Below, in pieces: positions 36,722 through 64,000 of a stretch of 64,000 nucleotides of DNA (position 1 is its first letter; each line of letters begins with the position of its first letter). A program made the translations under genes and the position numbers. The notes under the pieces are model-generated. The model saw only the letters and a list, made by a program, of their open reading frames with translations. It ran no database searches and had not been told where the DNA came from. The stretch is from an uncultured Bacteroidales bacterium. Lineage in GTDB: Bacteria > Bacteroidota > Bacteroidia > Bacteroidales > VadinHA17. Location of the stretch: NCBI GenBank assembly GCA_963831935.1, contig CAWHSH010000001.1:128389-192388 (forward strand), written 5' to 3'.

Positions 36722-36760
36722 CTTGTTGCTGGTTACTGGTAACTGGTTGCTTGTTGCTAG
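36722..36760. repeat. TTGCTGGTT/ACTGGTT-type repeat (family R3)
   Basis: cttgttgctggttactggtaactggttgcttgttgct. Relatives at 41076-41138, 48121-48195 and 61041-61105. Confidence 0.75.
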
Positions 36761-36767
36761 CACCATA

Positions 36768-36870
36768 ATTCCCCCTTTGAAGGGGGCTGAGCGTTAAAAA
36801 TTTGCCTAGTAGGCAAATTTAGCGAAGGAGCCGGCTTGAAGCGGAGATTTTGTGGTGGGGGTCAGGGGGA
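36768..36870. repeat. Double-hairpin repeat (family R4)
   Basis: CCCCCTTTGAAGGGGG-cTGAGCGTTAAAAATTTGCCTAgTAGGCAAATTTAGCGAAGGAGCC...GGGGGATGT. A second copy lies at 61175-61262. This copy sits in the glpK-glpF intergenic spacer. Confidence 0.8.
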
Positions 36871-41075: not shown

Positions 41076-41138
41076 GGTTGCTGGTTGCTTGTTACTTGTT
41101 GCCTGTTAACCTGCAACTGCCGACCAGTAACCAGTAGC
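41076..41138. repeat. Palindromic TTGCTGGTT/CCAGTAACC repeat (family R3) between convergent genes
   Basis: ggttgctggttgcttgttacttgttgcc...gccgaccagtaaccagtagc. ORF 41085..41294 is just its translation. Confidence 0.75.
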
Positions 41139-43732: not shown

Positions 43733-43868
43733 ATCCACCTCATCCCCTAACCCCTTCTCCCAGGAGAGAAGGGGAAATAGAAGAAATTCAGCATTTTTAG
43801 CCCCTCTCCCCTGGGAGAGGGGTTGGGGTGAGGTCGACACCCAGGGGAGGGATTTTGGGAGAGGTCAA
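43733..43868 (+). repeat. GC-rich double-hairpin repeat with a GGGGTGAGG tail (family R1)
   Basis: CCCCTTCTCC-caggagA-GAAGGGG ... CCCCTCTCCC-ctgg-GAGAGGGG-TTGGGGTGAGGTC. Relatives at 50058-50185, 55658-55785, 63224-63550 (inverted), 63961-64000 and, degenerate, 46402-46509. Confidence 0.8.
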
Positions 43869-46401: not shown

Positions 46402-46509
46402 TGCCTCTCCCCGAATTTAGCAGCCTTCCCCCAGTGTGGGAGGGGCTTAAATGCCAGATTTTAGAGTCCCCCGTCTCTCCCGGGAGAGGGGGATTTAGGG
46501 GGAGAGGCC
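46402..46509. repeat. GC-rich hairpin repeat, degenerate relative of family R1
   Basis: GCCTCTCCCC ... TCCCCCGTCTCTCCCGGGAGAGGGGGA ... GGGGAGAGGC with outer inverted repeats. ORF 46370..46558 is its translation. Confidence 0.65.
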
Positions 46510-48120: not shown

Positions 48121-48195
48121 TGTTGCTGGTTGCTGGTTACTTGTTGCTGGTTACTGGGTAATATTAACAAGCAACTGGCAACAAGCAACCAGTAA
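48121..48195. repeat. Palindromic family R3 repeat
   Basis: tgttgctggttgctggttacttgttgctggttactgg-gtaatattaa-caagcaactggcaacaagcaaccagtaac. ORF 48101..48322 begins as its translation (LLVAGYWVIL). Confidence 0.8.
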
Positions 48196-48215
48196 CATTC
48201 AATCAAAAGTCAAGC

Positions 48216-49985: not shown

Positions 49986-50216
49986 ACCCTCTGTGACCCT
50001 TTGTGTCTCCTCTGTGGATCTCAGTGAAACAAATAACGAACTTACACAGAGTTAAAAAGACCTCATCCCCCGACCCCTTCTCCCGAAGTGAGAAGGGGAG
50101 TATTAAATTGATAATCAGGATTTAAGCCCCTCTCCCTTGGGAGAGGGGTTGGGGTGAGGTCGATTCGCTTAAGGGGTTGGGGGGCAAAAAAAGCCGGCCT
50201 TCTGAGACCGGCTTTC
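49986..50216 (+). repeat. Composite ~230-bp repeat (R2 module, R1 module, terminator hairpin) downstream of a SusD gene
   Basis: It aligns end to end with 55582-55818. The central part CTCATCCCCCG.CCCCTTCTCCCGAAGTGAGAAGGGGAGTATTAAATTGATAATCAG.ATTTAAGCCCCTCTCCC is nearly identical in both copies. Confidence 0.85.
50186..50214 (-). terminator. Rho-independent terminator after SusD-1
   Basis: AAGCCGG-ccttctgaga-CCGGCTT hairpin with a T-run on the minus strand. It lies 33 nt beyond the stop at 50247. Confidence 0.6.
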
Positions 50217-50246
50217 ACTATTATTAATTACCAAACCTCCGGGAGT

Positions 50247-52130
50247 TTAATATCCGGGATTCTGGATCAGCGAAGTGTTTTTATTCATTTCATCCCTCAT
50301 GATCGGGAAGAAGTAACACTTGTCATTCCAGGCTCTTGACTCAACTCCGATAAGCTGATTGGAATAGATCGGAGCACCCCAGGTAGTACCATCCGGCTGA
50401 CGATAATTGGTTGCATTTGCAGCAGTTACATATTTTACATCAGCACGATGCGTAGGATGATATGCAGCCGGACCAATTATCCAGCGGCGCACATCCCAGA
50501 AGCGGTGGTCTTCAAGTGCAAGTTCGATACGGCGTTCGTGCCTGACTATTGCACGCATCGCAGCCTGGTCGGGACTTCCGGTAATATTTGGCTGTCCTGC
50601 TCTTGTACGGATCATATTGATATAGGTTCTGGCTTCAGCAAGGTTTGCAGCATCTCCTATTTCAATGCAGGCTTCAGCGTAGTTCAAAAGAACTTCAGCA
50701 TAACGGATATGACGGAACGGGATATCCTGTTTTACAAATTGAGGATCGAGTGTCGGATCATTGAATTTCCGCATATAGTATCCGCTTCTTCCTCCGTTCC
50801 AGTTTTCAATCGGCCCCTCGCGGGTATCCACACCCGGGACAAGCTGGGTTGTTCCGTCCAGTTTAAATACATGTCCTACCTGTATTTTATCCCATGGATC
50901 CATTGTCTGGACGTCAGACGGACGTTTCCTCCATGGACAACCTTCGTAAAGGATGGTTGCATAGAAACGGGCATCCCGCCTGGCATAGGGATTGGCCTTG
51001 TGAACCGGATTATTCCAGTCAAAGCTGGAACCATCTTTCATCTCATAATCATCAACCAGATCTCCCAGAGGAGTATTGTTGCCCCAGTTGTGGTATCCGT
51101 TAGGTCCGGAATACAATGCCGGATTGTAGTCCGACCAGCTCCGGCCGGTTTTGGTAGTAAAATACTGAAGAAGGATATCTTCAGTTTCATAACCGTACGA
51201 AAGAAAGTAATCAACAAAATTTTTGGCAATGGAATCTCCGGGAGCAGGAGTTTCCTTATACAGGCTGAAGGTACCCAGATCGATCACAGCTTTTGCAGCA
51301 GCTTTTGCAGTTGTCCAGCGGTCAGCCTGCGATCCGCTGGTATAGCCCAGCAGTTCCTTGTTTGTAAAACTTGAACCGGCTCCGGTCAGATAGCTGGACA
51401 TTTTGGAACCTTCATGCAGATCGCTGGCAGCATACAGCAAGGTTCTTGCTTTAAGGGCAAGAGCTGCTCCCTTGGTTGCATGGCCCCGGTCACCTCCTGC
51501 AAATGAAGCAGGAAGATACATGGCAGCAGAATCGAGCTGGCCAACTATGTAGTTTATACATTCCTCATAGGTATTCCTGGCAATGCTATAATCCTGGTTC
51601 AATCCATAGGGTTTGGTGATAAGAGGCACTCCTCCATAAAGGGCAACCAGATAATGATAAGTATATCCCCTGAGGAAGTAAGCTTCACCAATCGTGCGGT
51701 CCTTATCTGCTGGTGAAAGAAACTGAACGCCGCCAACTTTTGTAAAGAAAAGATTGAGCGCCCTCACATTCTTATAAAGAGGTGCCCAGCGATAATGCAA
51801 AGTATGGGCCGTAGGATCGGTATTTCCCCAGTCAGTCGACCAGCCCATCAGGCCATCCTGGGTCATCAGGGATTTGTTGAAATCGAATGCGCCCCAGTCG
51901 GGAGTGAATGAGGTCTCATCGGAATAATCGGAAAGCCTTTCAATAGCGAACGGCCATCCTAATGCATTATAATAACAATCGTTGATAAATGCTCCTACGA
52001 GGTTAGGGTCTACCCATACATCCGCATCAGAATATGATCCCAGAGGTTTTGTATCAAGGAAGTCTTTATTGCATGAAGTAACTATTCCGATCAGAAAAGT
52101 CGTACTTAAAATATATAATAGCTTTCTCAT
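50247..52130 (-). CDS. SusD/RagB-family nutrient-binding outer-membrane lipoprotein (pair 1)
   Basis: 627 aa. Lipobox VTSC. TPR-like SusD core. C-terminal ...YFFPIMRDEMNKNTSLIQNPGY. Confidence 0.9.
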   Translation of the reverse strand: MRKLLYILSTTFLIGIVTSCNKDFLDTKPLGSYSDADVWVDPNLVGAFINDCYYNALGWPFAIERLSDYSDETSFTPDWGAFDFNKSLMTQDGLMGWSTDWGNTDPTAHTLHYRWAPLYKNVRALNLFFTKVGGVQFLSPADKDRTIGEAYFLRGYTYHYLVALYGGVPLITKPYGLNQDYSIARNTYEECINYIVGQLDSAAMYLPASFAGGDRGHATKGAALALKARTLLYAASDLHEGSKMSSYLTGAGSSFTNKELLGYTSGSQADRWTTAKAAAKAVIDLGTFSLYKETPAPGDSIAKNFVDYFLSYGYETEDILLQYFTTKTGRSWSDYNPALYSGPNGYHNWGNNTPLGDLVDDYEMKDGSSFDWNNPVHKANPYARRDARFYATILYEGCPWRKRPSDVQTMDPWDKIQVGHVFKLDGTTQLVPGVDTREGPIENWNGGRSGYYMRKFNDPTLDPQFVKQDIPFRHIRYAEVLLNYAEACIEIGDAANLAEARTYINMIRTRAGQPNITGSPDQAAMRAIVRHERRIELALEDHRFWDVRRWIIGPAAYHPTHRADVKYVTAANATNYRQPDGTTWGAPIYSNQLIGVESRAWNDKCYFFPIMRDEMNKNTSLIQNPGY

Positions 52131-52142
52131 AATGGATTAGTT

Positions 52143-55100
52143 TTAGAAGGTTAATGTAACTCCAAGGTTTACGACTCTCTGAAGGGGATAATACTGACCT
52201 GAAGGTATTTCAGGGTCAATCAGTTTGATCTTGTCGAGAGTTATCAGATTAAGCCCGCTGATATAAACGCGAAGCATCTGAATATTCAGAGCACTGTTGA
52301 CTTTAGCCGGAAGTGTATAGCCAAATTCCAGGTTTTTCAGGCGAACATAGTCTGTCGGAAATTCCCAGAATGTATTGCCCTGATTTCTCCAGTACTCATT
52401 ATCGCGGTTCCATGCACGTGGCCATGTAGCGCCGGTATTTTCGGGAGTCCAGCGTTTATCAGCAAACTTTTTATAGAAGTTCCCGATATCACCGGATTCC
52501 ATTCCGAGATATACGATGTTACCAGCTGCCCCCTGTATTAACATACTGAGATCGAATTGCTTATATGTAAGAACAGCATTAAATCCCCCAATAAAAGTTG
52601 GTACGGTATTTTTACTGTCGCGAACCCTGTCCAGTCCGTCAATTGCACCATCATTGTTTACATCCTTGAATTTTATATCACCAGGCTGTGCACCAGCCCA
52701 ATGAGGATAAGCGTCAAGAGAGGCAGCATCCTTGAAAATCCCGATAGAAACATAGTTTAAGCCGGCATCCATTGGCATACCCTGGGCTTTCTGATATTCA
52801 GGTATACCGGGAGTGTCAAAGGTGAAATCGACTTTGTTCTTTGCATAACTGCCATTTAAAGAGAGGTCATAACCGAAATTTCCTGAAGCACCATGGTAGG
52901 TTATTATATATTCAAATCCCCTGTTCGAAACCTTTCCGATATTCTGAGGGGGAAGGGTCATCCCGGTACTTGCAGGAATAACGGCAGATGCCTGCCAAAG
53001 GATCTTTGAGCGCAGGTTATAGAAAAAGTCAGCTTCCAATGTCAGTTTATTATTCAGTAAAGTTGCATTGAATCCTATATTTGACTGATTTGCTACCTCC
53101 CATGTCACATCCGGATTTGGAACAACATTTTCATACAGCATCTTGGCATTGACACTCTGCCCGTATACATAATTCTGGCTGTCGAAGCTATAGGTAGAAA
53201 GATATTGATATTCCTTCAATTGATCATTGTAATAAATCCTGTCATTACCGGTTTGCCCCCACGAAGCTCTGAGCTTAAAGTCGCTTATGAAAGCAATGTT
53301 ATCTTTCCAGAAGTTCTCATCCGAAACACGCCAGCCCAGGGATACTCCGGGGAATAATCCAAATTGCTTACCCGGTTTGAACATATACGAACCATCATAC
53401 CTCAAAACCACTTCAATGAGATATCTCTGACTATAGTTGTAGTTGAATCGGCCAAAATAGCTCTCACGGGCATTCTGATCAGCCCAGCCATTGTTGGTCA
53501 TATATGTATCAGCGGCTCCGGCAAAGAGCTGGGGGATAGCGGAGGTAACATAATTCTTCCTGAATGCATTCAGATAGTTATTCAGAGCACTTTGCCTTTC
53601 AGCACCTACCATAAGTTTAATATTGTGTGTGGCGGCTATCGATTTTTCATAGGTAGCATACACGTTATAGGTAGTCTTGTGCTCCGTCCTGAAAATCCTC
53701 GCTTAGCTCCGGTGCATCCAGTCCCCTCTTTCCTTTCGTAAGTACATGGTCAGCATTTCCATCCCATGTGTACAGGTACCAGGGTGTCCGGAAACGTTTA
53801 TGGAAACGGAATATCTTGTCGTATGAACCATTGGCCTGCACAGACAATCCTTTTACCCACGGGATTGTAATATTCAGTCTTACGTTACTCTCCAGCACGT
53901 AGATCCGGTCTTTGTCTGTTCCGGTGGCATTGGTTACGGTTACTGCAGGGTTAAATCCGTATTCGATATCAGGTCCGGGTTCGCCGGTTGGCCAGTAAGC
54001 AGGCATATTGGGTTTGCCTCTCATAAGCATACGGAAGATATCTCCTGCACCGACAGTAGGGAAGTTCTTATTTTCCTGGCGGCCTGCAACGTCAAAAGCG
54101 ATATCGATATTTTTCGAAATCTTTCCATCGATGTTACTCCGGAAATCATATTGAGAAAAGTTGGTAGCACTGTGATAGTAATATGCATCCTGATATTTCG
54201 TACCAAGCGACAGAAAATACTTCATGCTTTCGGTACCACCGGAAATAGATATATTTTCGTAATTCTGTCTCGACCACGGTTTGAATACTTCTTTGAACCA
54301 ATCGGTATTGGGGTGTCCCCAGGGATCAGATCCATCTTTAAATTTCGTCAGATCATCAGCTGAAAATTGCTGGTTCCGTCCTCCGCCAGGATTGGAATAA
54401 TATGCAATCTCATTAAGCATTGTTGCATAGGTAACTGCATCGGCCATTTTAGGAACAACCGTGGGTTGGTTATAACCATTGTTCAGATTTAAAGTAATTG
54501 TCGGTTTTCCGATTTTACCTCGTTTAGTAGTAACCAAAATAACCCCGTTTGCAGCCTGTGTACCATAGATGGCTGCTGAAGCGTCCTTTAGAATGGTAAA
54601 ACTTTCAATGTCAGCAGGGTCCAGACGTTCAAGTGAACGATGGGGAATCCCGTCAATAACAACAAGCGGGGTATTATCACCAAGGGTATTGGCACCGCGA
54701 ATAGTAATCGTAGCGCCGTCATAACCTGGTTCACCGCTCTTTTGTACCGACGTGAGGCCTGGCAGACGTCCAACCAGACTGTTGGTAAGGTTTGTTGTAG
54801 GCGACTGCTTCAGGGTTTCACCCCTGACAGCACTAATGGAACCGGTTAAGCTGGCTTTTTTGGCCGTGCCATAGCCGGTAACCACAACCTCTTCAAGAGC
54901 TGTTACCTCCCCGGACAAGGCAACATTCACAGTTGTCCGTCCGTTCAAAGGAACTTCCTGTGTTACATAACCGATAAAAGAGAAAACAAGTGTTGCATTT
55001 CTGTCGGTTATGGCTAAGGAAAAATTCCCATTAACATCGGTAATAGCACCAAAATTTGTACCTTTTATCACAATGTTTACACCAGGCATTGCCTCAGCGG

Positions 55101-55296
55101 TTGCAGCATCGCTGACTTTACCAGTTATTGTAATTTGCTGCTGATCGTCAGTGCCTGGATTATTTCCAGCAAACGTTAAGGCTGGAGTTGTAAGGGTACA
55201 TAGGAGTAGAAGGATTATAAATTTCGCAGTCATTAGTAACTTACGAAAATCCATATCTGGCTTTAAAAGCCAAAAACAGAATGTAGTTTTTTTCAT
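52143..55296 (-). pseudogene. SusC/RagA-family TonB-dependent transporter (pair 1); single frameshift near 53665-53700
   Basis: ORF 53665..55296 holds the N-terminal extension, CarboxypepD_reg (ITGKVSDAATAEAMPGVNIVIKG) and plug (ITIRGANTLGDNTPLVVIDG). ORF 52143..53663 holds the barrel, ending ...NLGVTLTF. The two ORFs are in different frames. Confidence 0.85.
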
Positions 55297-55581
55297 ACTG
55301 TTACATATAAATTAATGATTTAGGAATTAAGGGTAAAATAAAAAGGATTATATAGCGAATGACAATGCGCTGAGTTTCCAGGTCTTTGACAAGGACATTT
55401 TCCTGGTTGTGGATCAATTCTCCTTCGTTATCCAATAAGAAATTCTTGTTTAAGGTTAGTCAGGCTATTCTTTGATTAGATACTTGGAAGTGCAATTTAC
55501 ACACTTAATAAATTAAAGTCAAGTTTTTCTTTAAAGAGAAAGTCAGAATACAGCCGGGAATGATGCGTTCAAATATTAATC

Positions 55582-55818
55582 ACCCTCTGTGACCCTACTG
55601 TGAATCCTTTGTGGATCTCTGTGAAACAATTTAAGAACTTACACAGAGTTAAAAAGAACTCATCCCCCGGCCCCTTCTCCCGAAGTGAGAAGGGGAGTAT
55701 TAAATTGATAATCAGAATTTAAGCCCCTCTCCCCCGGGAGAGGGGTTGGGGTGAGGTCTATTCACAGGGGGGATAGGGGTCAAAATAAAAAAGCCGGCCC
55801 TTTCAGACCGGCTTTTAC
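55582..55818 (+). repeat. Second copy of the composite R2+R1+terminator repeat, downstream of SusD-2
   Basis: See 49986-50216. It occupies the same position relative to the SusD stop codon (55852). Confidence 0.85.
55787..55814 (-). terminator. Rho-independent terminator after SusD-2
   Basis: AAGCCGG-ccctttcaga-CCGGCTT hairpin with a T-run on the minus strand. Confidence 0.6.
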
Positions 55819-55851
55819 CATATTAATATCAGGCTTTTTACTAACGGAATA

Positions 55852-57760
55852 CTAATAACCCGGGTTCTGCTGTAACTGAGGTGCTTTGTTCATCTCATCA
55901 CGTGCAATCGGTACCCAGTAGTATTTATCATTTGCCCATGATCTTTCATCAGGCATAGATGTAAGATCGAGCTTCCACTCCATATCTCCGTTTACCCACT
56001 CTTTTATCTTCATTTCATAAACGTTTTCAATGACTGTAGGAGCAGTCATCCAGCGTCGCATATCATACCACTGGTGTCCTTCGGCAAAGTGTTCAAGATA
56101 CCTTTCATGACGAACCCACTGCCGGGCCGTTGGCTGATCGGTCGTAACCCTGTCGGGTAAGTCCTGCACGGTTCCTGACCTTGTTAAGGGCATCGAGGCC
56201 ATTCTGAAGATCAGCACCGCCGAGTTCGATACATGCTTCCGCATAGTTAAGGAAAATTTCGGCAAACCGGAATTCAACCCAGGTATTGGTATTTCTGTAG
56301 TACTGTCCCACAGTTCCCGGATCCAGGAACTTTTTGAGATAGTAACCGTTCTTGGTTCCATTCCATGCTTCGATAAGTCCCTGCCTTGAATCGACGCCAT
56401 AGGATTTTACTGTTCCATCCATATTATACACGTGGCCGGTTTGTACCTTATTAAAAGGATCAAAAGCAGCACCATCAGCAGGACGGGCCTGCCATGGAGC
56501 TCCATTGAACAGAACTGTTGCATAGAAGCGCGGCTCACGGCCAACATAAGGATTCCTTTGCGGATCTGCTGTAAGCTGGGCTGCGGTGGCAGTTCTGAGG
56601 ACCTGGTCTCCCGGAGTATATTTGTCCCATACAAACGGAGTGCCATCAGCCATTTCGTACTGCCTTACAGCCGGTTCAGTCGGATCATTGTTACCCCAGT
56701 TGTGATATCCGCAAGGCCCATACCAGATGTTAGCATTGTTTACATTACCACCGGTAAGAGGATACTGAATGCCCCAGATTGTTTCCTTGTTCCATGCACC
56801 TTTCTGGTTAAAGATATTAAAATAGGTATTTGCATAGGTTGTAACATCTGCATCAGCAAGAGGTGATGGGGGATCAGTGTAGGTCCCGACAAGGTCGAAT
56901 GCCCCGTAGGTACCATCTATCACAGACTTGGCTGCATCCCTTGCTGCAGTCCAGCGGGCAGCCTGTGTGCCGGTAGTGAAGGATACAAGGGGATTTGAAG
57001 CTTCATAGCCACCGTTGACAAGAGGGCTTGCACAGAAGAGAAGGACTCGTGATTTTAGTGCGGCAGCTGCAGCTCTGGTTGCACGACCCTGTTCCATTCC
57101 TTTTGCAGGCAGGTTGGCAATTGCTGCATCAGCGTCAGCAAGAACCAGATCGAGTGTTTCCTGTAATGACGATCTTTTAATTGAAAGAAAATCACCCCCA
57201 AGCTTGAATGGTTCTGTGCTTATAACTGCTCCGCCATAATTCATAAGCAGTATTGCATATTCGTAAGCCCTTATGAAATATGCCTCACCTTTAAGACGCG
57301 TCGCAAGTGCTTCGTCTGGTGCAGATAATCCTTCTAATCCATCAATACCAGCCAGCACAGTGTTAAGGTTTTGAATATTACTGTAAAGATGGGGCCAGCG
57401 AAGGAATCCAGCATAACCGGTATTGGCAAAGTATCCAAGCTGGTCAGGACTCATCGTCCCTTTCAGATGAACATAGTTGGCAGGACGGTGAATACATAAT
57501 GTCTGATCAGTACCAGAGGTAAGCAGGTCTTCGCGCATTCCAAGGACACCATTATTATCACTATTCATATTGGTGGCATTCTGAATACCACCCATCCTGT
57601 CATAGCATTTGCCGAGGTAAGCCTTAACGACATTTATATCTGAGAAAACCACCTGCTCGTTAAATGAACTAACCGGGTCCTGATCCAGAACGTCTTTACA
57701 CGACGTTGCAAACAGGAGCAGTACCGCTACCGAGAGTATATAACTTAATTGTTTTTTCAT
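55852..57760 (-). pseudogene. SusD/RagB-family lipoprotein (pair 2); one frameshift near 56105-56160
   Basis: ORF 56105..57760 has lipobox ATSC and the SusD core. The tail of ORF 55852..56400 reads ...QWVRHERYLEHFAEGHQWYDMRRW...YWVPIARDEMNKAPQLQQNPGY. Confidence 0.85.
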
Positions 57761-57789
57761 ATCAGATTATTTAAGAATTTCTTAATCAG

Positions 57790-60700
57790 TTAAAAAGAGA
57801 TATTTGCACCAAAAGCAAATGTCTTCATAATAGGATATACTCCGGCTCCCTGGGCTTCCGGATCAAACTTCTTCGTCGCAGAATAGAGCAATCCAAGGTT
57901 GTTACCGGAGAAATAAACACTTGCATTTGAGATACCGACCTTTTTCAGAATACTGCTCGGAATATTGTATGAAAGCATAAGGTTCTTGAACCGGCAATAA
58001 GCCGTGTTATCGAGCCAGTATGTGTTCATATTCACAGCATGGGCGTAGTAAAAGTCATTACGGTTGTATGCTCTGGCAATATCAGTTTCGGTGTTTGTAG
58101 GTGTCCAGCGGTTGTCATAGGTCCATTGCATGTAGTTTCCTGCTTCACCACGTCTTTCATCATAGATATTCTGCTTTAAGAATTTCCCCTGTCCCTGTAA
58201 GAGAACTGATAATGTAAAATCTTTCCAGGTTGCATCCAGAGTTAATTCCATAGAAAATCTCAGGTACATCAGCCTCATCAATAAGGACCCTGTCATCACC
58301 GTTTATAACACCATCTTTCGAAACATCCTCAAATATAAGGTCACCGGGTTTTGCACTGTTCCAGTGAGGATAAGCATCAACAGCTCCCTGGTCGGCAAAA
58401 ACACCAATAGATCTGTACATCAGCCAGGCATTATAAGGGTGACCGGTGGTCTGCTGCCATGGAACTGCCCTTGCCGGTTCATCCTGGAAAACTACTTTGT
58501 TATGGTTATAGCTGAAGTTGCCGCCCAAGATCAACTCAAAGGTCAGATGTAATATTTTTATGAACACCTGCCTCGATTTCAAAACCCTGGTTATCGACAC
58601 GGGCTATATTTTCGTTTGGAAGCGAAAGACCGGTGAAATTCGGAACAGAAGCATCCCTTGGAGCAAGAATATCTTTCCTGATATTATAGAAGTATTCAAA
58701 ATCAAGGCTGATAAGATCATTAAGCCATTTTGATTCAAATCCGATGTTCTTGGTGGTCTGTGTTTCCCATGTTATATTCGGGTTTGCAACAACAGGAGGA
58801 CCGACAACAGTTTCAATTGATGTACCTGTACCAAATACCATACCTGATCCCAGGCTAAAACTGTTCATGTACTGGAAAGGATTTCCCGGGTCCATACCCA
58901 TCATACCGTATGATGCCCTGAGTTTGAAATAGTTGATAAACGGAATATTGTCTTTCCAGAATCCTTCCTCAGATGCACGCCATCCTACCATGAATCCCGG
59001 GAAATATCCCCATCGTTTGTTGGGCGGGAATTTAAGTGAACCGTCAGCACGGAAAAGTATTTCAGCAAGATATTTTCCCTGATAATCATAGGTTGCACGG
59101 CCGATATACGATTTACGTGCATAAATTGTCATTCCGCCTGTGGTATTCTTGTTCTGATCAGCTCCTGCATCCATTGTCTGAATCAGCGATGAAATATAGA
59201 ACTGACGGAATCCGTAAAAGTTATTATAATCGCTTGTATATTGTTCGAAACCGCCATACAGGAATATATTATGATTACCAAATTTCCGCGTAAAGGTGGC
59301 ACCAAGGTTAATTGTCTTGTTTATTGTCCGGTCAAAATTCTCTTCATTTTGGGGAGAAGAGAGCCCTCTGAGAGTTGGTGTCAGTGGCATATCGGTAATG
59401 AAACCTGTTACAGGATCTGTTGTAGCCTGCGACCAGTTGGGATAATAGAGAATCCAGGGTTTGAAGAATCTTTTCCTGTAGAAATTTGTCAGGTCATAAC
59501 TGTAAATACCATTAAGTGAAAGACCTTTTATCAAATGGGATTGTAATGGTTGCGTTAAATGAACTCAGCAATCTGTATGTTTTCTGGTCGTCTTTACCTC
59601 CTGCAAAAGTTGATGTAACAACAGGGTTATCACCATATTCAATATCAGGTCCGGGAAGTCCGTTTGGCCAGAATGACCATGTTGTCGGAGTCAGACGTGT
59701 TGACTGACCAACAATGGCATCAGCCGATTTATAAGGATAAACCCTGTTTACCTGGAATCCTGCCAGTTCAACCCCTGTCTTAAGCCAGTCGGTAATTGGC
59801 ATATCAACTTTTGCACGGACATTATACTGTTTATAGTTGGTGGAGGATTGCTTATACATTGATTCATCACCTTTTAGACCGAAGGAAACATAATAAGTCA
59901 TTCCTTTGGTACCACCGTCAATTGTAATATTGTGCCTGTATGGTTCTGTCCACTTTTTGATAAGGTCACCATACCAGTCAGTATTCGGATGTCTCCACGG
60001 ATCCTTATGGTTTTTAAACAGTTCAATGTCTGCATCGGTATATGTCCGTGATTTACCTGTTGCCGTCTGGTATTCTGAAAGCATTGTAGCATATTCCGCG
60101 GCATTGGTTACATCAGGGATTATACTCGGTGTCTGACATCCCTGGTAGAACTGATAATTAATCTTGGTTTGCCTTCTGCACCTTTTTTGGTAGCGATAAG
60201 GATAACTCCATTTGCAGCCTGGGCTCCATAGATTGCAGCAGAAGCATCTTTCAGAACTGATAGGCTTTCAATATCATTCGGGTCAATTTCATCCATTGAA
60301 CGTCCGGGAACACCATCAATAACCACAAGAGGTGCTGTTTGTGAAGCATATCTGTTTCTGTCTCCACCCAGAGTACTACGACCTCGAACAAGGATTTTGT
60401 GGCGTAAGCTCCGGGTTCACCTGTTCCCTGTATTACAATTGATCCCGGCAAACGTCCTGCAAGTGATGTTGAAACGTTTGGAGAAGGTACAGACTGGATG
60501 CTTGCACCTGAAATAGAGGTTACAGATCCGACAACGTTTGCACGTTTCTGGGTGGAATAACCTACAACGACAACTTCATCAAGGTCGGTAATCTCTCCTG
60601 AAAGTGCTACATCAACAACAGTTCTGCCGTTAAGGGCAATTTCCTGGGTTACATAACCGATAAATGAAAAGACCAGGGTTGCGTTGCTGTCAACTCCGGA

Positions 60701-60984
60701 TAAGTGAGTATTTCCCTTCGGCATCGGATATAGCACCAAGTGGCAGTACCTTTAACCTGGATGTTTACACCCGGCATTGCCTCGCCGGTTGAAGCATCGG
60801 TAACTGTTCCTGTAACCCTCACCTGTTGCTGATCATCAATGGATGGATTGTCTGCAGCCAATGAATAGGCCGGAACCGCCAGGCCGCAGAACAGAAGAAG
60901 AACTACAATTTTCACAGGAAGTAACAACCTGCGAAAACTTACATTTGGTCCTAAGGACCAAAAGCAGTTGGGAGTTTTTTTCAT
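57790..60984 (-). pseudogene. SusC/RagA-family TonB-dependent transporter (pair 2); at least six frame changes
   Basis: Seven overlapping ORF fragments (60649..60984, 60251..60739, 60120..60326, 59512..60084, 58536..59534, 58160..58600, 57790..58299) together give the N-terminal extension, CarboxypepD_reg, plug and barrel, ending ...FGANISF. The N-terminus is paralogous to pair 1 (ATLVFSFIGYVTQE shared). Confidence 0.8.
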
Positions 60985-61040
60985 ACTGTTACACTGTTAG
61001 TTAGTTAATAAATAGTTAGATATTAGGATTGCTTTGAAAA

Positions 61041-61105
61041 TGTTGCTGGTTGTCAGCCTTCGCTAAAGCTTCGGCTGGTAAAACTTGTTGCTGGTTTATC
61101 TGGTT
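61041..61105. repeat. Family R3-like repeat with an embedded AGCCTTCGCTAAAGCTTCGGCT hairpin
   Basis: tgttgctggttgtcagccttcgctaaagcttcggctggtaaaacttgttgctggtttatctgg. Confidence 0.65.
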
Positions 61106-61174
61106 TCTTTGTATTTCATACCCTCTTTGAAGTATCCTCACATAATTTCCCCGTTGAAGTATCACTCTTATAAG

Positions 61175-61262
61175 TCCCCCTTGGAAGGGGGCCGAGCGTT
61201 AAAAATTTGCCCGGTGGGCAAATTTAGCGAAGGAGCCAGCTTGCAGGGAGGGGGGGATGTTT
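61175..61262. repeat. Second copy of the family R4 double-hairpin repeat
   Basis: CCCCCTTGGAAGGGGG-cCGAGCGTTAAAAATTTGCCCGgTGGGCAAATTTAGCGAAGGAGCC...GGGGGGATGT. Compare 36768-36870. Confidence 0.8.
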
Positions 61263-61531
61263 CTTGGTTTTTCTCTTTTTTTGGTTCTTGTCTTTTAATT
61301 AGTCAGGTTCTTAATTCAAATAATAAACAAAATCCGAATAAGTGTAAAACTTACACTCATTCAAATTCATTCTTAATATTCGATAATTATTTGGTTATCC
61401 GATGTGTTCAGGTTTTTAGGTTAGACATTAGGGTTTAAAGGTGCCACCGAATATAAATAACTTGTTTCACAAAAACAAATCTGTTCATCAAATTTCGTTA
61501 CACCAGCCTGAACAAAAGTGACTGGAATTAC

Positions 61532-63072
61532 TCAATTTGAGGTGCTTACGTTTCCGGTTTTGCCGTCAAATTCGCACACTACCCTGAATCCTACATTAAA
61601 GCAGTCGGAATACCACCAGATGCTTTTTGGCATCTGCGGATCGGTCCGAAGCCATGCTTCTGTTCTTGTATAATCACGCGCGGCACTTCTCAAAGCTCAG
61701 GCCGGACTCTGGAATGTACCGCCGCGGATGACATGTTCCTCACCGCTTTCGGGACCCTTGGGATCTTTAACAACACCTGCAGGGATATTGTGAATAGGCG
61801 TCAGGCTGGTACCAGTCAGCACAGAATTCGGCTACATTTCCTGCCATATTTTTCAGTCCGAACGGATTTGGTTTTACGAAATCGGGTGTCTGGGTTTTCG
61901 ACGGACTGTTTTCCTTATATACTATATATCTGTTAATTAGAGTTGTATCATTCTTGCCAAGTTTTGCCCTGAGCCCCGTCTTTTCATATTTCTTCAGATC
62001 TCCATCGAAGAAAAACGGACCTTGTGTTCCGGCTCTGCACGCATATTCCCATTCAGCCTCCGTCGGCAGACGGTAGGTTTTACCCGTGACAAGTGAGAGC
62101 CATTTGCAGTAGGTCTCTGCTGCATGATACGTAAAAGATATTGCCGGACGCTGTCCCATTCCCCATCCCTGGTCAGGTTGTCCATATGGAGGAGTGGCAC
62201 CGGATATTGCATCGACATTCTGAGATGCCTTAAGACCGCTTCTCAAACCTTCAGTATCAGATGAACGGCCTTCAGCGGATGTCTGAACATAAAATGCAAG
62301 GTATTCATCCCATGTGACTTCAACCTCTGCCATGAAGAACGGACTTATCTCAACTTCCCTTACAGGTCCTTCATCTGCTTTCCTGAAAGGCTCATCTTCG
62401 GGACTGCCCATCTGGAATTTTCCTCCGGAGATGGCAACCATGTTAAAGGTAACTGAGGATTTTGGTATTTTTTCGGTATAGTTCTTAAATTCGGTAACGG
62501 TCGCAGGTTCTGTAAATATCTCTTTAGGTGCTGACGAGACGGCCCCGAAAGTTGTATTGCTTCCATGGGTATAGCCTTCAATATAGTGGCCAGCATTCAG
62601 ATGACAGTTTATGCAATTCAGGTCAGGAGTCTTTTTCTGCTGGGTATAATAAAGATGTGCATTCTCCCCGTCCTTTGGTAAGTTTCGCAGGGAAAAGGTT
62701 TTCATGACATTTAATACAGGTGCTTTCATACGTGTATCCACGGGCTAGTTCAAGTCTGCCGCGTTCAACCCAGTCGAATGAGGCTGAATCCTTGGTCCAG
62801 TAACTCCACAGATCGCGCAACCCTGTTTTCCCTTTTGCCCACAGGTATCCATGTCCCTTTGGAGGAAGATGGCACTCCACGCAGGCAACTCTGTATCCTG
62901 ACTGGGTTTCATAATGTACAGATCTTTTCCAGTCTGCATCCGCCATCGGGTGAATATGGCAAGACATGCAATATTCATTTGTTGAGGTTTTATTCGATTG
63001 CCCTGCCGGCACTGAGAATAATGAGCACACCGATGATCAGTCCGGGAGTGAACCAAATAAGAACTTCTTCAT
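61532..63072 (-). pseudogene. Fusion of a NapC/NirT-type tetraheme cytochrome to an FGE-sulfatase (SUMF1/EgtB/PvdO-family) domain; at least four frameshifts plus one in-frame TGA
   Basis: My frame tracking gives MKKFLFGSLPG|LIIGVLIILSAG|QSNKTSTNEYCMSCH...CVECH...CIKCH|...CINCH..., then the FGE domain (MGSPEDEPFRKADEGPVREVEISPFFMAEVEVT, RLPTEAEWEYACRAG, NPFGLKNMAGNVAEFCADWY), then |AGVVKDPKGPESGEEHVIRGGTFQSPA*ALRSAARDYTRTEAWLRTDPQMPKSIWWYSDCFNVGFRVV. The in-frame TGA is at 61697-61699. Confidence 0.7.
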
Positions 63073-63223
63073 AATTCAAAAAAATGTGTAGCAACAAGGT
63101 AAAAAATTATCTTAAACGTCAGAGCGGCTTAAATAATTTACCTTTAAAAATTTAGTTTTTTTAACTTAATCGGTCCTGTTTTTAAAAAGTTACCAAAGTA
63201 AAAGACGTCAAAAAAAGGAAATG

Positions 63224-63550
63224 CGGCCTCACCCTCTCCTGTTACCTGCTCTCCCGGAGAGAGCGGGTGATGACAGTTCAAATTTGTAAATGGCCATTAT
63301 TTTGCTGGTGTTGTGTCGGCCTCACCCCCTCCTATCCCCCGCTCCCGGAGTGAGCGGGGGATGAGTGTCAAATTTGTAAATGACCATTATTTTGATGATG
63401 TGGTGTCGACCTCACCCCCTCCTGTTTCCTGCTCCCGGAGTGAGCAAGGGATGACAGCTCAATTTTGTAAATGACTATTATTTTGATGATGTGGTGTCGG
63501 CCTCACCCCCTCCTGTCCCCCGCTCCTGGAGTGAGCGGGGGATGATAGTT
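63224..63550 (-). repeat. Tandem array (~3.5 units of 90-93 bp) of inverted family R1 hairpin repeats
   Basis: Units start at 63224, 63317, 63407 and 63498. Each unit is CGGCCTCACCCCCTCCTNTCCCCCGCTCCCGGAGTGAGCGGGGGATGA followed by a conserved ...TCAAATTTGTAAATGACCATTATTTTGATGATGTGGTGT. Confidence 0.85.
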
Positions 63551-63570
63551 CTTTTATCTTGATACGAATT

Positions 63571-63938
63571 TTAGATAAGTACTACTTCACAATTATTTAG
63601 TACCTCTTCATTCTTGAATCTAATAACAGATATCCCGAATCTTTCAAGTTCACCAGTTCTGCTATCGTCATATTCAAGTGATTTATCCCTTGAATGATAT
63701 TCACCATCAATTTCGATTACCAGCTTTTATCTTGTGACAATAAAAATCAGCAATAAAAATATCAATCGGATGTTGCCTCCGAAAAACGAATCCTTCTGAG
63801 CGAAATTTCCTTAAATGTTTCCACAGAATACTTTCAGATTCAGTCTGGATTATTTCTGTGACTTATGGCACGTCTGAATAAATCAGGCTTTGCACCAAAG
63901 TGCATATCCTTAATTCTTGCTTTACCTAAATATACCAT
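63571..63938 (-). pseudogene. DUF559 (Vsr/PD-(D/E)XK-like endonuclease-fold) protein; two frameshifts
   Basis: My translation gives MVYLGKARIKDMHFGAKPDLFRRAISHRNNP | TESESILWKHLRKFRSEGFVFRRQHPIDIFIADFYCHK | KLVIEIDGEYHSRDKSLEYDDSRTGELERFGISVIRFKNEEVLNNCEVVLI*. The FRRQHPI...ADFYC...LVIEIDG..H blocks are the DUF559 signature. Confidence 0.7.
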
Positions 63939-63960
63939 ATGCCTTCTCTTTTACTTTTGT

Positions 63961-64000
63961 AAGCCCCTCTCACTCCGGGAGAGGGGTTTGGGGTGAGGCC
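63961..64000 (+). repeat. Family R1 hairpin repeat, forward orientation, at the window edge
   Basis: AAGCCCCTCTCACTCCGGGAGAGGGGTTTGGGGTGAGGCC. It is inverted relative to the unit at 63498-63545 on the other side of the DUF559 remnant. Confidence 0.8.

Follow-up and report, generated by a model that had tools for sequence, protein, structure and literature searches.

What relation exists between a small gene of the DUF559 family and the hairpin repeat that stands on both of its sides? This question is raised by the right-hand end of a 64,000-nucleotide stretch of DNA from an uncultured Bacteroidales bacterium of the VadinHA17 lineage (assembly GCA_963831935.1, contig CAWHSH010000001.1, positions 128,389 to 192,388), which is referred to here, at its full length, as the window. 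DUF559 is a very large family for which structural information has been obtained and, to our knowledge, no function is known. The answer reached in this work is that the locus represents a DUF559 cassette enclosed by inverted modules of the BoxC/TM repeat, and that a homing-like nuclease acting on these modules is the most likely mechanism, a reading to which we assign a probability of about 0.5.

The gene lies on the minus strand (Table 1), where the DUF559 protein is spread over three frames in the region 63546-63938, and the joined pieces of the frame-repaired protein, read from 63571-63938, match Pfam DUF559 (PF04480) with E=8e-30 and 103 bits against a cut-off of 20.6. When read on the strand of the gene, the cassette consists of a C-tag followed by a hairpin, then the open reading frame (ORF), and then a hairpin followed by a G-tag. 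An earlier sequence-only reading of this DNA had described the gene as bracketed by the same hairpin module in opposite orientations, and the sequence confirms this. The 5' module reads GGCCTCACCCC-AAA-CCCCTCTC..GAGAGGGG-CTTAC and ends ~22 nt upstream of the ATG, and the 3' module (TCATCCCCCGCTC-ACTCCAG-GAGCGGGGGA-CAGGAG-GGGGTGAGGCCG) is found directly 3' of the nuclease domain. The same reading had placed the left-flank hairpin outside the gene, which proved to be mistaken, as the module overlaps the end of the ORF and codes for SSPAHSRSGGQEGVRP, and the intact closest homologues terminate in ...ELSSPAHSGSGGQEGVRPT, which is the translated hairpin plus tag. The ~3.5-fold amplification noted earlier for the left flank agrees with the tandem array measured here, which has a period of 91 with 84% matches; its unit is composed of the 3' module and a 43-nt AT-rich spacer, and CGGCCTCACCCCCTCCTGTCCCCCGCTC..GAGCGGGGGA is contained in every unit. 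The possibility that these spacers are remnants of DUF559 ORF ends, the array then being one of internally deleted cassettes, was rejected for the window, as local alignment was no better than for shuffles. Extension past position 64000, by means of two metagenome contigs carrying the syntenic locus (L001 and L002), indicates that the right flank is part of the cassette and that upstream, past the point matching the window end, the 5' module continues as 2-3 tandem copies. The copy number of the end arrays varies among the window, L001 and L002, with the 3' array consisting of 2 units in L001.

The same layout is also found in the window without a gene. The four intergenic composites listed in Table 1 have the layout of the cassette with a spacer of ~25 nt where the ORF would be, and they correspond to the relatives of the module reported earlier (at ~43.7, 50.1 and 55.7 kb, and in degenerate form at 46.4 kb). 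As single-strand DNA, the composites are predicted by Watson-Crick folding to form long hairpins (z ~-5.7). A three-block finder (C-block, G-block and mirror G-block, with 8-nt blocks and at most 1 mismatch) detected 10 modules in the window, compared with 0 over 20 shuffled sequences, and the tag GGGGTGAGG is present 7 times where 0.2 occurrences are expected. In the model favoured here, the dispersed inverted module pairs are DUF559 cassettes minus the ORF.

Table 1. Positions within the window of the DUF559 gene, its flanking modules and the related gene-less composites.
Feature	Position	Strand	Description and basis
5' module of cassette	63961..64000	+	AAGCCCCTCTCACTCCGGGAGAGGGGTTTGGGGTGAGGCC; arrangement inverse to left flank; truncated at window end; window sequence, three-block finder, L001/L002
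DUF559 (Vsr-like PD-(D/E)XK) gene with repeat-encoded C-terminal tail	63495..63938	minus	Pfam PF04480 after frame repair; 93% identity to P0001
Gene-proximal 3' module	63498..63545	minus	Hairpin CCCCCGCTC/GAGCGGGGG, ACAGGAG, GGGGTGAGGCC
Tandem array, 3.6 units x 91 nt	63224..63551	minus	Tandem Repeats Finder; repeat families D1/D4
Gene-less composite	43737..43835		Two inverted modules, tags outward, 26-nt AT-rich spacer; fold -30.4 kcal/mol, z=-5.7
Gene-less composite	50060..50161		Layout as 43737-43835; just past SusD gene terminator; fold z=-5.8
Gene-less composite	55657..55758		87% identity to the composite at 50060; repeat family D2
Degenerate composite	46402..46509		One recognisable module, 46469-46506: CCCCGTCTCTCCCGGGAGAGGGGGATTTAGGGGGAGAG

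What kind of repeat is this? The hairpin repeat of the sequence-only reading is real, and what that reading missed is its identity with a published element, which has been described successively as BoxC (Bergler 1992), PIT elements (Hoyne & Maher 2000) and TM or TMECO repeats (Holder et al. 2015, PMC4666352). Judging from their blocks, the window modules can be regarded as variants, forming a related subfamily, of this BoxC/PIT/TM repeat. In the TM layout, a C-block is followed by its complementary G-block and, after a short loop, by a mirror-image G-block, so that a purine-motif intrastrand triplex is possible (PMC4666352); the block criterion applied in this work was a mirror-symmetric G-block, with G*G:C and T/A*A:T triads and short loops. 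Both have in common the three-block layout, the intergenic dispersal, the close inverted pairs of two subtypes and the hypervariable loci, as published TM loci consist of inverted type A and type B pairs, show strong hypervariability, and occur in both enterobacteria and cyanobacteria (Holder et al. 2015, PMC4666352). However, loop 2 of the exact TMECO is 3 nt, whereas in the 3' type of the window it is 6-7 nt and accompanied by one mirror mismatch. The exact TMECO pattern (CCCTCNCCC N3-6 GGGNGAGGG N3 GGGNGAGGG) is accordingly matched only in the E. coli loci L179 and L181 and not in the window, where 3 matches vs 0 expected are obtained when the loops are relaxed to 2-7 and 2-5 nt. A further difference lies in the gene, as the BoxC/PIT/TM literature describes no associated gene or mobility function, whereas here the modules are framing a DUF559 gene. 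In Rfam no match was found at gathering scores, the single weak match being meaningless.

If the small gene and the abundant intergenic repeats had come together by chance, for which the richness in repeats of the intergenic regions of the window could be cited, then no enrichment or recurrence of the arrangement should be seen elsewhere. A GTDB scan provided 80 Bacteroidota DUF559 loci, and the Bacteroidota comparisons that follow count loci or contigs. In the close loci, the 5' module reads CCTC(A/T)CCCC-AA(A)-CCCCTC(T/C)CCC..GGGAGAGGGG-CTTAA and is located 25-35 nt upstream of the ATG, a position kept in most of them, and the 3' module, TCCCCC(G/T)CTC..GAG(C/A)GGGGGA-NNNGAG-GGGGTGAGGCC, again overlaps the ORF end. 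The more distant DUF559 subfamilies possess analogous, different modules (e.g. AAGTCCCCCTTGGGGGATTTAGGGGT), and the locus L069 has a perfect 38-nt terminal inverted repeat (TIR). In a motif-agnostic test, the 160 nt upstream were aligned to the reverse complement of the 3' region and compared with random controls of the same geometry; inverted flanks above the 99th percentile of the controls were found for 40/73 Bacteroidota DUF559 loci, which answers the earlier concern that other DUF559 copies might lack inverted repeats, and the pairing of flanks from the same locus was far above that between loci (Mann-Whitney p=2e-16). The tags are predominantly facing outward (31:11 upstream and 35:10 downstream). 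These enrichment and specificity statistics, together with the recurrence of the arrangement over phyla, effectively refute chance juxtaposition.

It can also be envisaged that DUF559 is only a passenger, trapped between two modules that are moved by an HUH/RAYT-like 'TIRYT' transposase located elsewhere (RAYT, REP-associated tyrosine transposase; REP, repetitive extragenic palindrome) or by host recombination at non-B DNA. Di Nocera et al. (2013) reported RAYT-like genes whose flanking TIRs share GGGGWSAS, and GGGGTGAG fits this motif. However, if the trapping were random, then other gene families should also be framed, whereas it is essentially DUF559 alone that is framed: all 19 of the ORFs of at least 90 aa lying between inverted tags in the close GTDB loci encode DUF559, and so do 4 of the 5 framed ORFs, among 449 ORFs, in 80 contigs that were fetched via an unrelated neighbour gene. 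Similarly, 6/25 TMs in loci not chosen through DUF559 fall within the 0.7% of bases adjoining DUF559. Further, no transposase or integrase has been found near TMECO, and the mechanism of its instability is described as unclear (Holder et al. 2015, PMC4666352). We consider the passenger explanation unlikely.

The modules are also conserved as structures. The tag covaries as a mirror of the stem, viz. GGAGAGGGG/GGGGTGAGG in the window and GGAGAAGGGG/GGGGGTTGAGG in L069. Over 25 loci, 97.6% of the cells of the 3' hairpin are paired, a value equalled in 0/500 shuffles, and two of its stem positions show compensatory double changes (UA to GC 16:9 and UA to CG 21:3). It is the hairpin that codes for the C-terminal tails SP..G.G(..GVRP), and in several loci the ORF stops just ahead of the hairpin; therefore, selection here is on the nucleic acid and not on the peptide. 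The fixed tag GGGGTGAGG was rejected as a marker for all Bacteroidota, as it is present in only ~20-30% of loci, the other subfamilies using other covarying hairpins and tags. Some otherwise normal modules contain, at the same relative position, a mini-hairpin of ~21 nt (CTCCCGCnnnnGCGGGACAnG or CCCCGCCTTCAAGCGGGG), seen in the 5' modules of L007, L011, L016, L018, L026 and L117 and in the 3' hairpin of L025 and L026; it is a nested insertion of a still smaller repeat and reminiscent of the small dispersed repeats of cyanobacteria. The proposal that the locus is REPtron-like thus holds for its geometry, based on the 40/73 loci and the framed ORFs described above; as to the enzyme that it named, we infer that DUF559 may bind or cut the modules and may thereby drive their spread.

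Is the association limited to Bacteroidota? A tblastn search was made against PLSDB, and 13 small DUF559 genes were then inspected. Modules on both sides of the gene were found in Picosynechococcus PCC 7002, Pseudanabaena, two Synechocystis plasmids, three Deinococcus species and Sphingomonas; they were found on one side only in Azospirillum, Sinorhizobium, Photobacterium and E. coli, and DUF559 of Neisseria has a different repeat arrangement. One Deinococcus cassette, which is bounded by 71-nt TIRs, is located between paaD and paaZ, and that of Sphingomonas is between sufB and sufC with its tags inward. The junction between nuclease domain and module is tight and conserved over four phyla, which again argues against a trapped passenger. 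As further observations, the cassettes of L173 (Sphingomonas; sufB/sufC) and L177 (Deinococcus psychrotolerans; paaD/paaZ) lie inside conserved operons and are oriented with them, and those of two cyanobacterial plasmids (L163 and L164) adjoin DUF1156, PglX/BREX-like methyltransferase genes and PIN/VapC toxins, the DUF1156 gene of L164 appearing to be interrupted by the DUF559 cassette.

The E. coli member of the family is ycjD, and the order of the genes is sapF-ycjD-BoxC copies-fabI, where fabI is envM, the gene whose sequence gave the first description of BoxC (Bergler 1992). The ycjD gene ends in ...SPSP*, within a TM, and all of the enterobacterial YcjD homologues examined (from Escherichia, Shigella, Enterobacter, Kluyvera, Klebsiella and related genera) end in PSPRPSP*, which corresponds to CCCTCACCC-CGA-CCCTCTCCC-TGA. 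Of these sources, Escherichia, Shigella and Enterobacter are TMECO-rich genera, and no Salmonella is present among the top 120 YcjD homologues; TMECO itself is absent from Salmonella and reaches its maximum in Enterobacter asburiae (Holder et al. 2015, PMC4666352). The gene is present in 3378/5426 complete E. coli genomes, and in phylogroups B2, D, E and F its place is taken by eefRABCD (PMC12817139). In a spread sample, the number of further BoxC-like places had a median of 20 (range 13-29, n=37) in genomes with ycjD vs 7 (2-24, n=21) in those lacking it (p=3e-8). The E. coli RAYT is tied to GTAG-tagged REPs and not to BoxC, which does not favour a transposase acting elsewhere as the source of the modules. 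In E. coli K-12 (L181), the region 1545-1640 downstream of ycjD contains a partial copy of its last ~45 nt and a degenerate TM (GGAGACGGTGCTGGAGAATATTCGGCAAGGTCTGAACCGTCCCAGCCATCGCCATGAAAGGGTTAGGGG), so that the 3' end of ycjD and the TM module were duplicated together; in some E. coli annotations the reading frame continues across this region, giving longer YcjD variants (P0124 and P0132).

Does the gene behave as a resident of its locus? For this purpose, 80 related metagenome loci were fetched with the neighbouring cytochrome/FGE protein (75-91% aa identity). In these contigs the gene order fumarase -> (nucleoside hydrolase) -> cytochrome/FGE is conserved and the intergenic content is highly variable, the gap between fumarase and hydrolase alone measuring anything between 7 and 740 nt. 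DUF559 is present at the fumarase/cytochrome-FGE site only in a few relatives, which represent three subfamilies and both orientations: the lineage of the window, L001 and L002; L085, L091 and L148, which are 63-67% identical and of the same orientation; and L101, which carries a different 'SPPWGI' subfamily in the opposite orientation. In L125 a 42% identical DUF559 is found in a different gap. In other relatives the same spot is taken up by one module, by a pair of modules or by repeat families of unrelated kinds. One contig, L087, is collinear with L085 across the upstream flank and the 5' and 3' modules and lacks only the ORF of ~410 nt between them; L087 is thus an ORF-less cassette at the orthologous site. 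The insertion polymorphism that the sequence-only reading had proposed to look for therefore exists, with some relatives carrying the cassette, some lacking it, and others having a different DUF559 subfamily in its place or just the ORF-less module pair. One metagenome-assembled genome has three DUF559 copies on different contigs. Separately, positions 8981-10432 of L009 contain at least 3 DUF559 cassettes head to tail, each with its own 5' and 3' modules and with ~12 nt between the 3' tag of one cassette and the 5' tag of the next. A search for phage carriage in IMG/VR gave 3 weak DUF559 matches, none of them with modules. Taken together, the evidence supports a unit of gene and repeat that acts like a mobile or selfish cassette, the dispersed module pairs being its ORF-less counterparts.

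These observations also bear on a different possibility, viz. that DUF559 has a housekeeping role in repair, as a structure-specific nuclease (Vsr-like, or for triplexes or hairpins), with the flanking modules as its own cis elements, serving as 5'/3' stabilisers of the mRNA, terminator or autoregulatory sites, and that the dispersed copies are independent. The Vsr-like fold, the purifying selection on the protein, the 5' module at a fixed distance from the ATG and the location of ycjD at one conserved site in E. coli phylogroups A, B1 and C are all in accordance with a host function of this kind. However, presence and absence, replacement by another subfamily, opposite orientations and multiple or tandem copies at one locus do not fit a housekeeping gene, and identical module pairs exist without the gene. 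Two further points speak against it: no T-run is present 3' of the 3' hairpin in the window sequence, and PIT elements, according to the account of Hoyne & Maher given by Holder et al. (PMC4666352), are without promoter or terminator activity. Based on this balance, a host function seems improbable. The fumarase-hydrolase intergenic site is, in addition, a hotspot for several repeat families, and the fact that the fumarase/cytochrome-FGE intergenic site collects several unrelated families is a point in favour of DUF559 being a passenger. Of the families seen in the fumarase-hydrolase gap, one is unrelated and resembles miniature inverted-repeat transposable elements (MITEs), with long inverted ends GGATTGCTTCGTC...GACGAAGCAATCC (L089, L129, L140, L145 and L162), and another has CCACCCCGGCC ends (L105 and L162).

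Which properties of the protein could connect it with the modules? Besides DUF559, the Pfam scan of the window protein gave the families MTES_1575 and DUF2726, and neither an HUH Y1 (IS200/IS605-like) nor any other transposase domain was found in it. The residues D64, E75, D77 and H81 (D...ExDGxxH) are invariant in alignment A1, and catalytic roles are predicted for them by analogy with Vsr. The nuclease core, with dN/dS of 0.05-0.2, is under purifying selection. In an AlphaFold2 model (pLDDT 69), in which the C-terminal tail is disordered, the nearest structure is 3HRL (TM-score 0.82 on target), followed by 3R3P (TM-score 0.65 on target, Foldseek probability 1.0), and the PDB profile matches are in the same order (3HRL, E=1.9e-24; I-Bth0305I, 3R3P, E=7.6e-5). 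As 3HRL (N. gonorrhoeae NGO0050) and E. coli YcjD are themselves DUF559 proteins of unknown function, with ~40% identity to the window protein, profile and model comparisons point to the catalytic domain of the homing endonuclease I-Bth0305I as its closest characterised relative. The NCBIfam model PRK09767 is matched with E=4e-21, under the equivalog cut-off. Membership in a defence system was rejected, since PADLOC gave weak domain-level matches only, including a weak 'HEase' match of 3.8e-4.

A homing-like mechanism is preferred because of this fold, the existence of ORF-plus and ORF-minus alleles and the outward-tag geometry. If DUF559 is a structure- or sequence-specific nuclease recognising the module, or an ORF-less module pair, then it would nick or cut at the module or pair so recognised, and recombinational repair templated on a gene-bearing copy would either copy the ORF in or lead to the deletion, duplication or rearrangement of modules. 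The cassette would then be a homing-like selfish element, and its activity would have as by-products both the tandem amplification at its ends and the instability for which TM loci are known.

Several observations weigh against this mechanism. About half of the Bacteroidota loci have weak or no flanks under the criteria used, and in E. coli and Sphingomonas the orientation of the modules relative to the gene is reversed. The correlation between ycjD and BoxC is confounded by phylogroup, and E. coli without ycjD retain BoxC, with up to ~24 copies (~14 in O157:H7), a persistence that would also be expected if DUF559 were a passenger. The comparison of L085 and L087 does not tell gain of the ORF from its loss, and no target-site duplications, in the form of direct repeats outside the tags, were seen. 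Lastly, a hydrolytic nuclease of ~120 aa cannot rejoin DNA, and hence any mobility must use host recombination.

The homing-like cassette can be compared with several known systems. It resembles the REPtrons (REPIN-RAYT systems) in that the gene is enclosed by inverted copies of a hairpin repeat that is dispersed in its own genome, and in having gene-less inverted doublets (REPIN-like), tandem arrays similar to bacterial interspersed mosaic elements (BIMEs) and genome-specific repeat sequences. However, RAYT is an HUH Y1 transposase associated with a GTAG tag, whereas the cassette encodes a Vsr-like PD-(D/E)XK fold and has no GTAG tag; and RAYTs are typically single-copy and vertically inherited, whereas DUF559 is multi-copy, variably present and horizontally patchy, with a module overlapping the end of its ORF. 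With homing endonuclease genes (EDxHD/Vsr-like I-Bth0305I, PDB 3R3P, and free-standing ones) it shares homology of the catalytic domain, a small, selfish-looking ORF and the presence or absence of this ORF within a conserved frame (L085 vs L087, and the variable occupancy among the 80 contigs). It differs from them in being outside an intron or intein and in lacking a long DNA-binding domain, and the target of a homing endonuclease is a single allele, whereas DUF559 would have as its target a repeat dispersed in many copies over its own genome. Pairs of insertion sequences and MITEs are similar in that TIRs are common to the gene-bearing element and its short gene-less derivatives, but the cassette is without recognisable DDE, HUH or serine/tyrosine recombinase chemistry and without a target-site duplication. 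Lastly, ycjD is alike in ending in a TM module and adjoining BoxC copies, but different in the reversed orientation noted above.

The state of the gene in the window requires a separate comment. A homologue search gave 1231 matches, the closest of which are 140-150 aa in length, and the best (P0001; 147 aa, 93% identical) is intact and is encoded at the syntenic position in L001 and L002, where the DNA identity to the window is 84-90%. The window copy had earlier been described as inactivated by two frameshifts. Comparison with L001 instead shows that, against the intact orthologue, one extra base is present at each of three places (~63845, ~63731 and ~63576). All of the syntenic neighbouring genes (window 50000-63100) are also frameshifted relative to L001, viz. 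SusC (~7 segments), SusD (2) and NapC/NirT-FGE (3, with four single-base indels), and the adjacent ORF of 324 aa, which is frameshifted, has no exact protein record. Because the neighbouring genes are frameshifted at a comparable rate, errors in sequencing or assembly probably account for the apparent inactivation of this copy, the simplest reading being an error-prone (long-read?) assembly. The SusC/SusD neighbours, together with the Bacteroidales relatives, point to a Bacteroidales-like Bacteroidota as the source and exclude an anammox origin, for which the multihaem cytochromes might have spoken.

Other repeats are also present in the window. A 77-nt direct repeat, 90% identical between 36765-36841 and 61170-61246, is a separate dispersed element composed of the hairpin AGTCCCCCTTGGAAGGGGGC and a second stem GCCCGGTGGGC, and its first hairpin is akin to the 'AAGTCCCCCTTGGGGG' module type. 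Tandem arrays of heptamers and octamers (GTTGCTG, GGTTACT and CAACGGCA types) occur at 36725-36758, 41077-41107 and 48122-48197 and also in L141, L142, L143 and L155; they are intergenic and often form inverted pairs, like the short tandemly repeated repetitive (STRR) sequences of cyanobacteria, and in some relatives they fill the fumarase-hydrolase gap.

A literature search, which did not cover all journals, found no paper linking DUF559 or ycjD/Vsr-like genes to BoxC/TM or any other repeat. In one study, 'DUF559 domain-containing protein' is listed, without comment, among the coding sequences enriched for predicted inversions (odds ratio 14.3; Milman et al. 2023), which fits the present results because DUF559 has flanking inverted repeats. 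Knowledge of BoxC/PIT/TM repeats goes back to 1992; large numbers of them are present in E. coli, Enterobacter, Microcystis and many further bacteria, where they are markers of hypervariable loci. On the sequence evidence presented here, DUF559 is the first credible candidate for an enzyme of these repeats. The broader proposition, that DUF559 proteins, including YcjD of E. coli, may be the missing enzymes of BoxC/PIT/TM across bacteria and act as structure-specific nucleases of homing type that spread both themselves and the modules, is put forward only tentatively. The repeat-encoded tails account for the many spurious 'PSP..GEG..GVR' peptide ends in annotated DUF559 proteins. The coupling of DUF559 and the repeat across phyla gives both a testable function, for which ycjD and the adjoining BoxC copies of E. 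coli K-12 offer a direct test system. DUF559 and its modules would constitute a second, non-HUH partnership of repeat and enzyme beside REP-RAYT, and if DUF559 is indeed the enzyme of BoxC/TM, then the genomic instability seen at TM loci would be caused by DUF559 activity.

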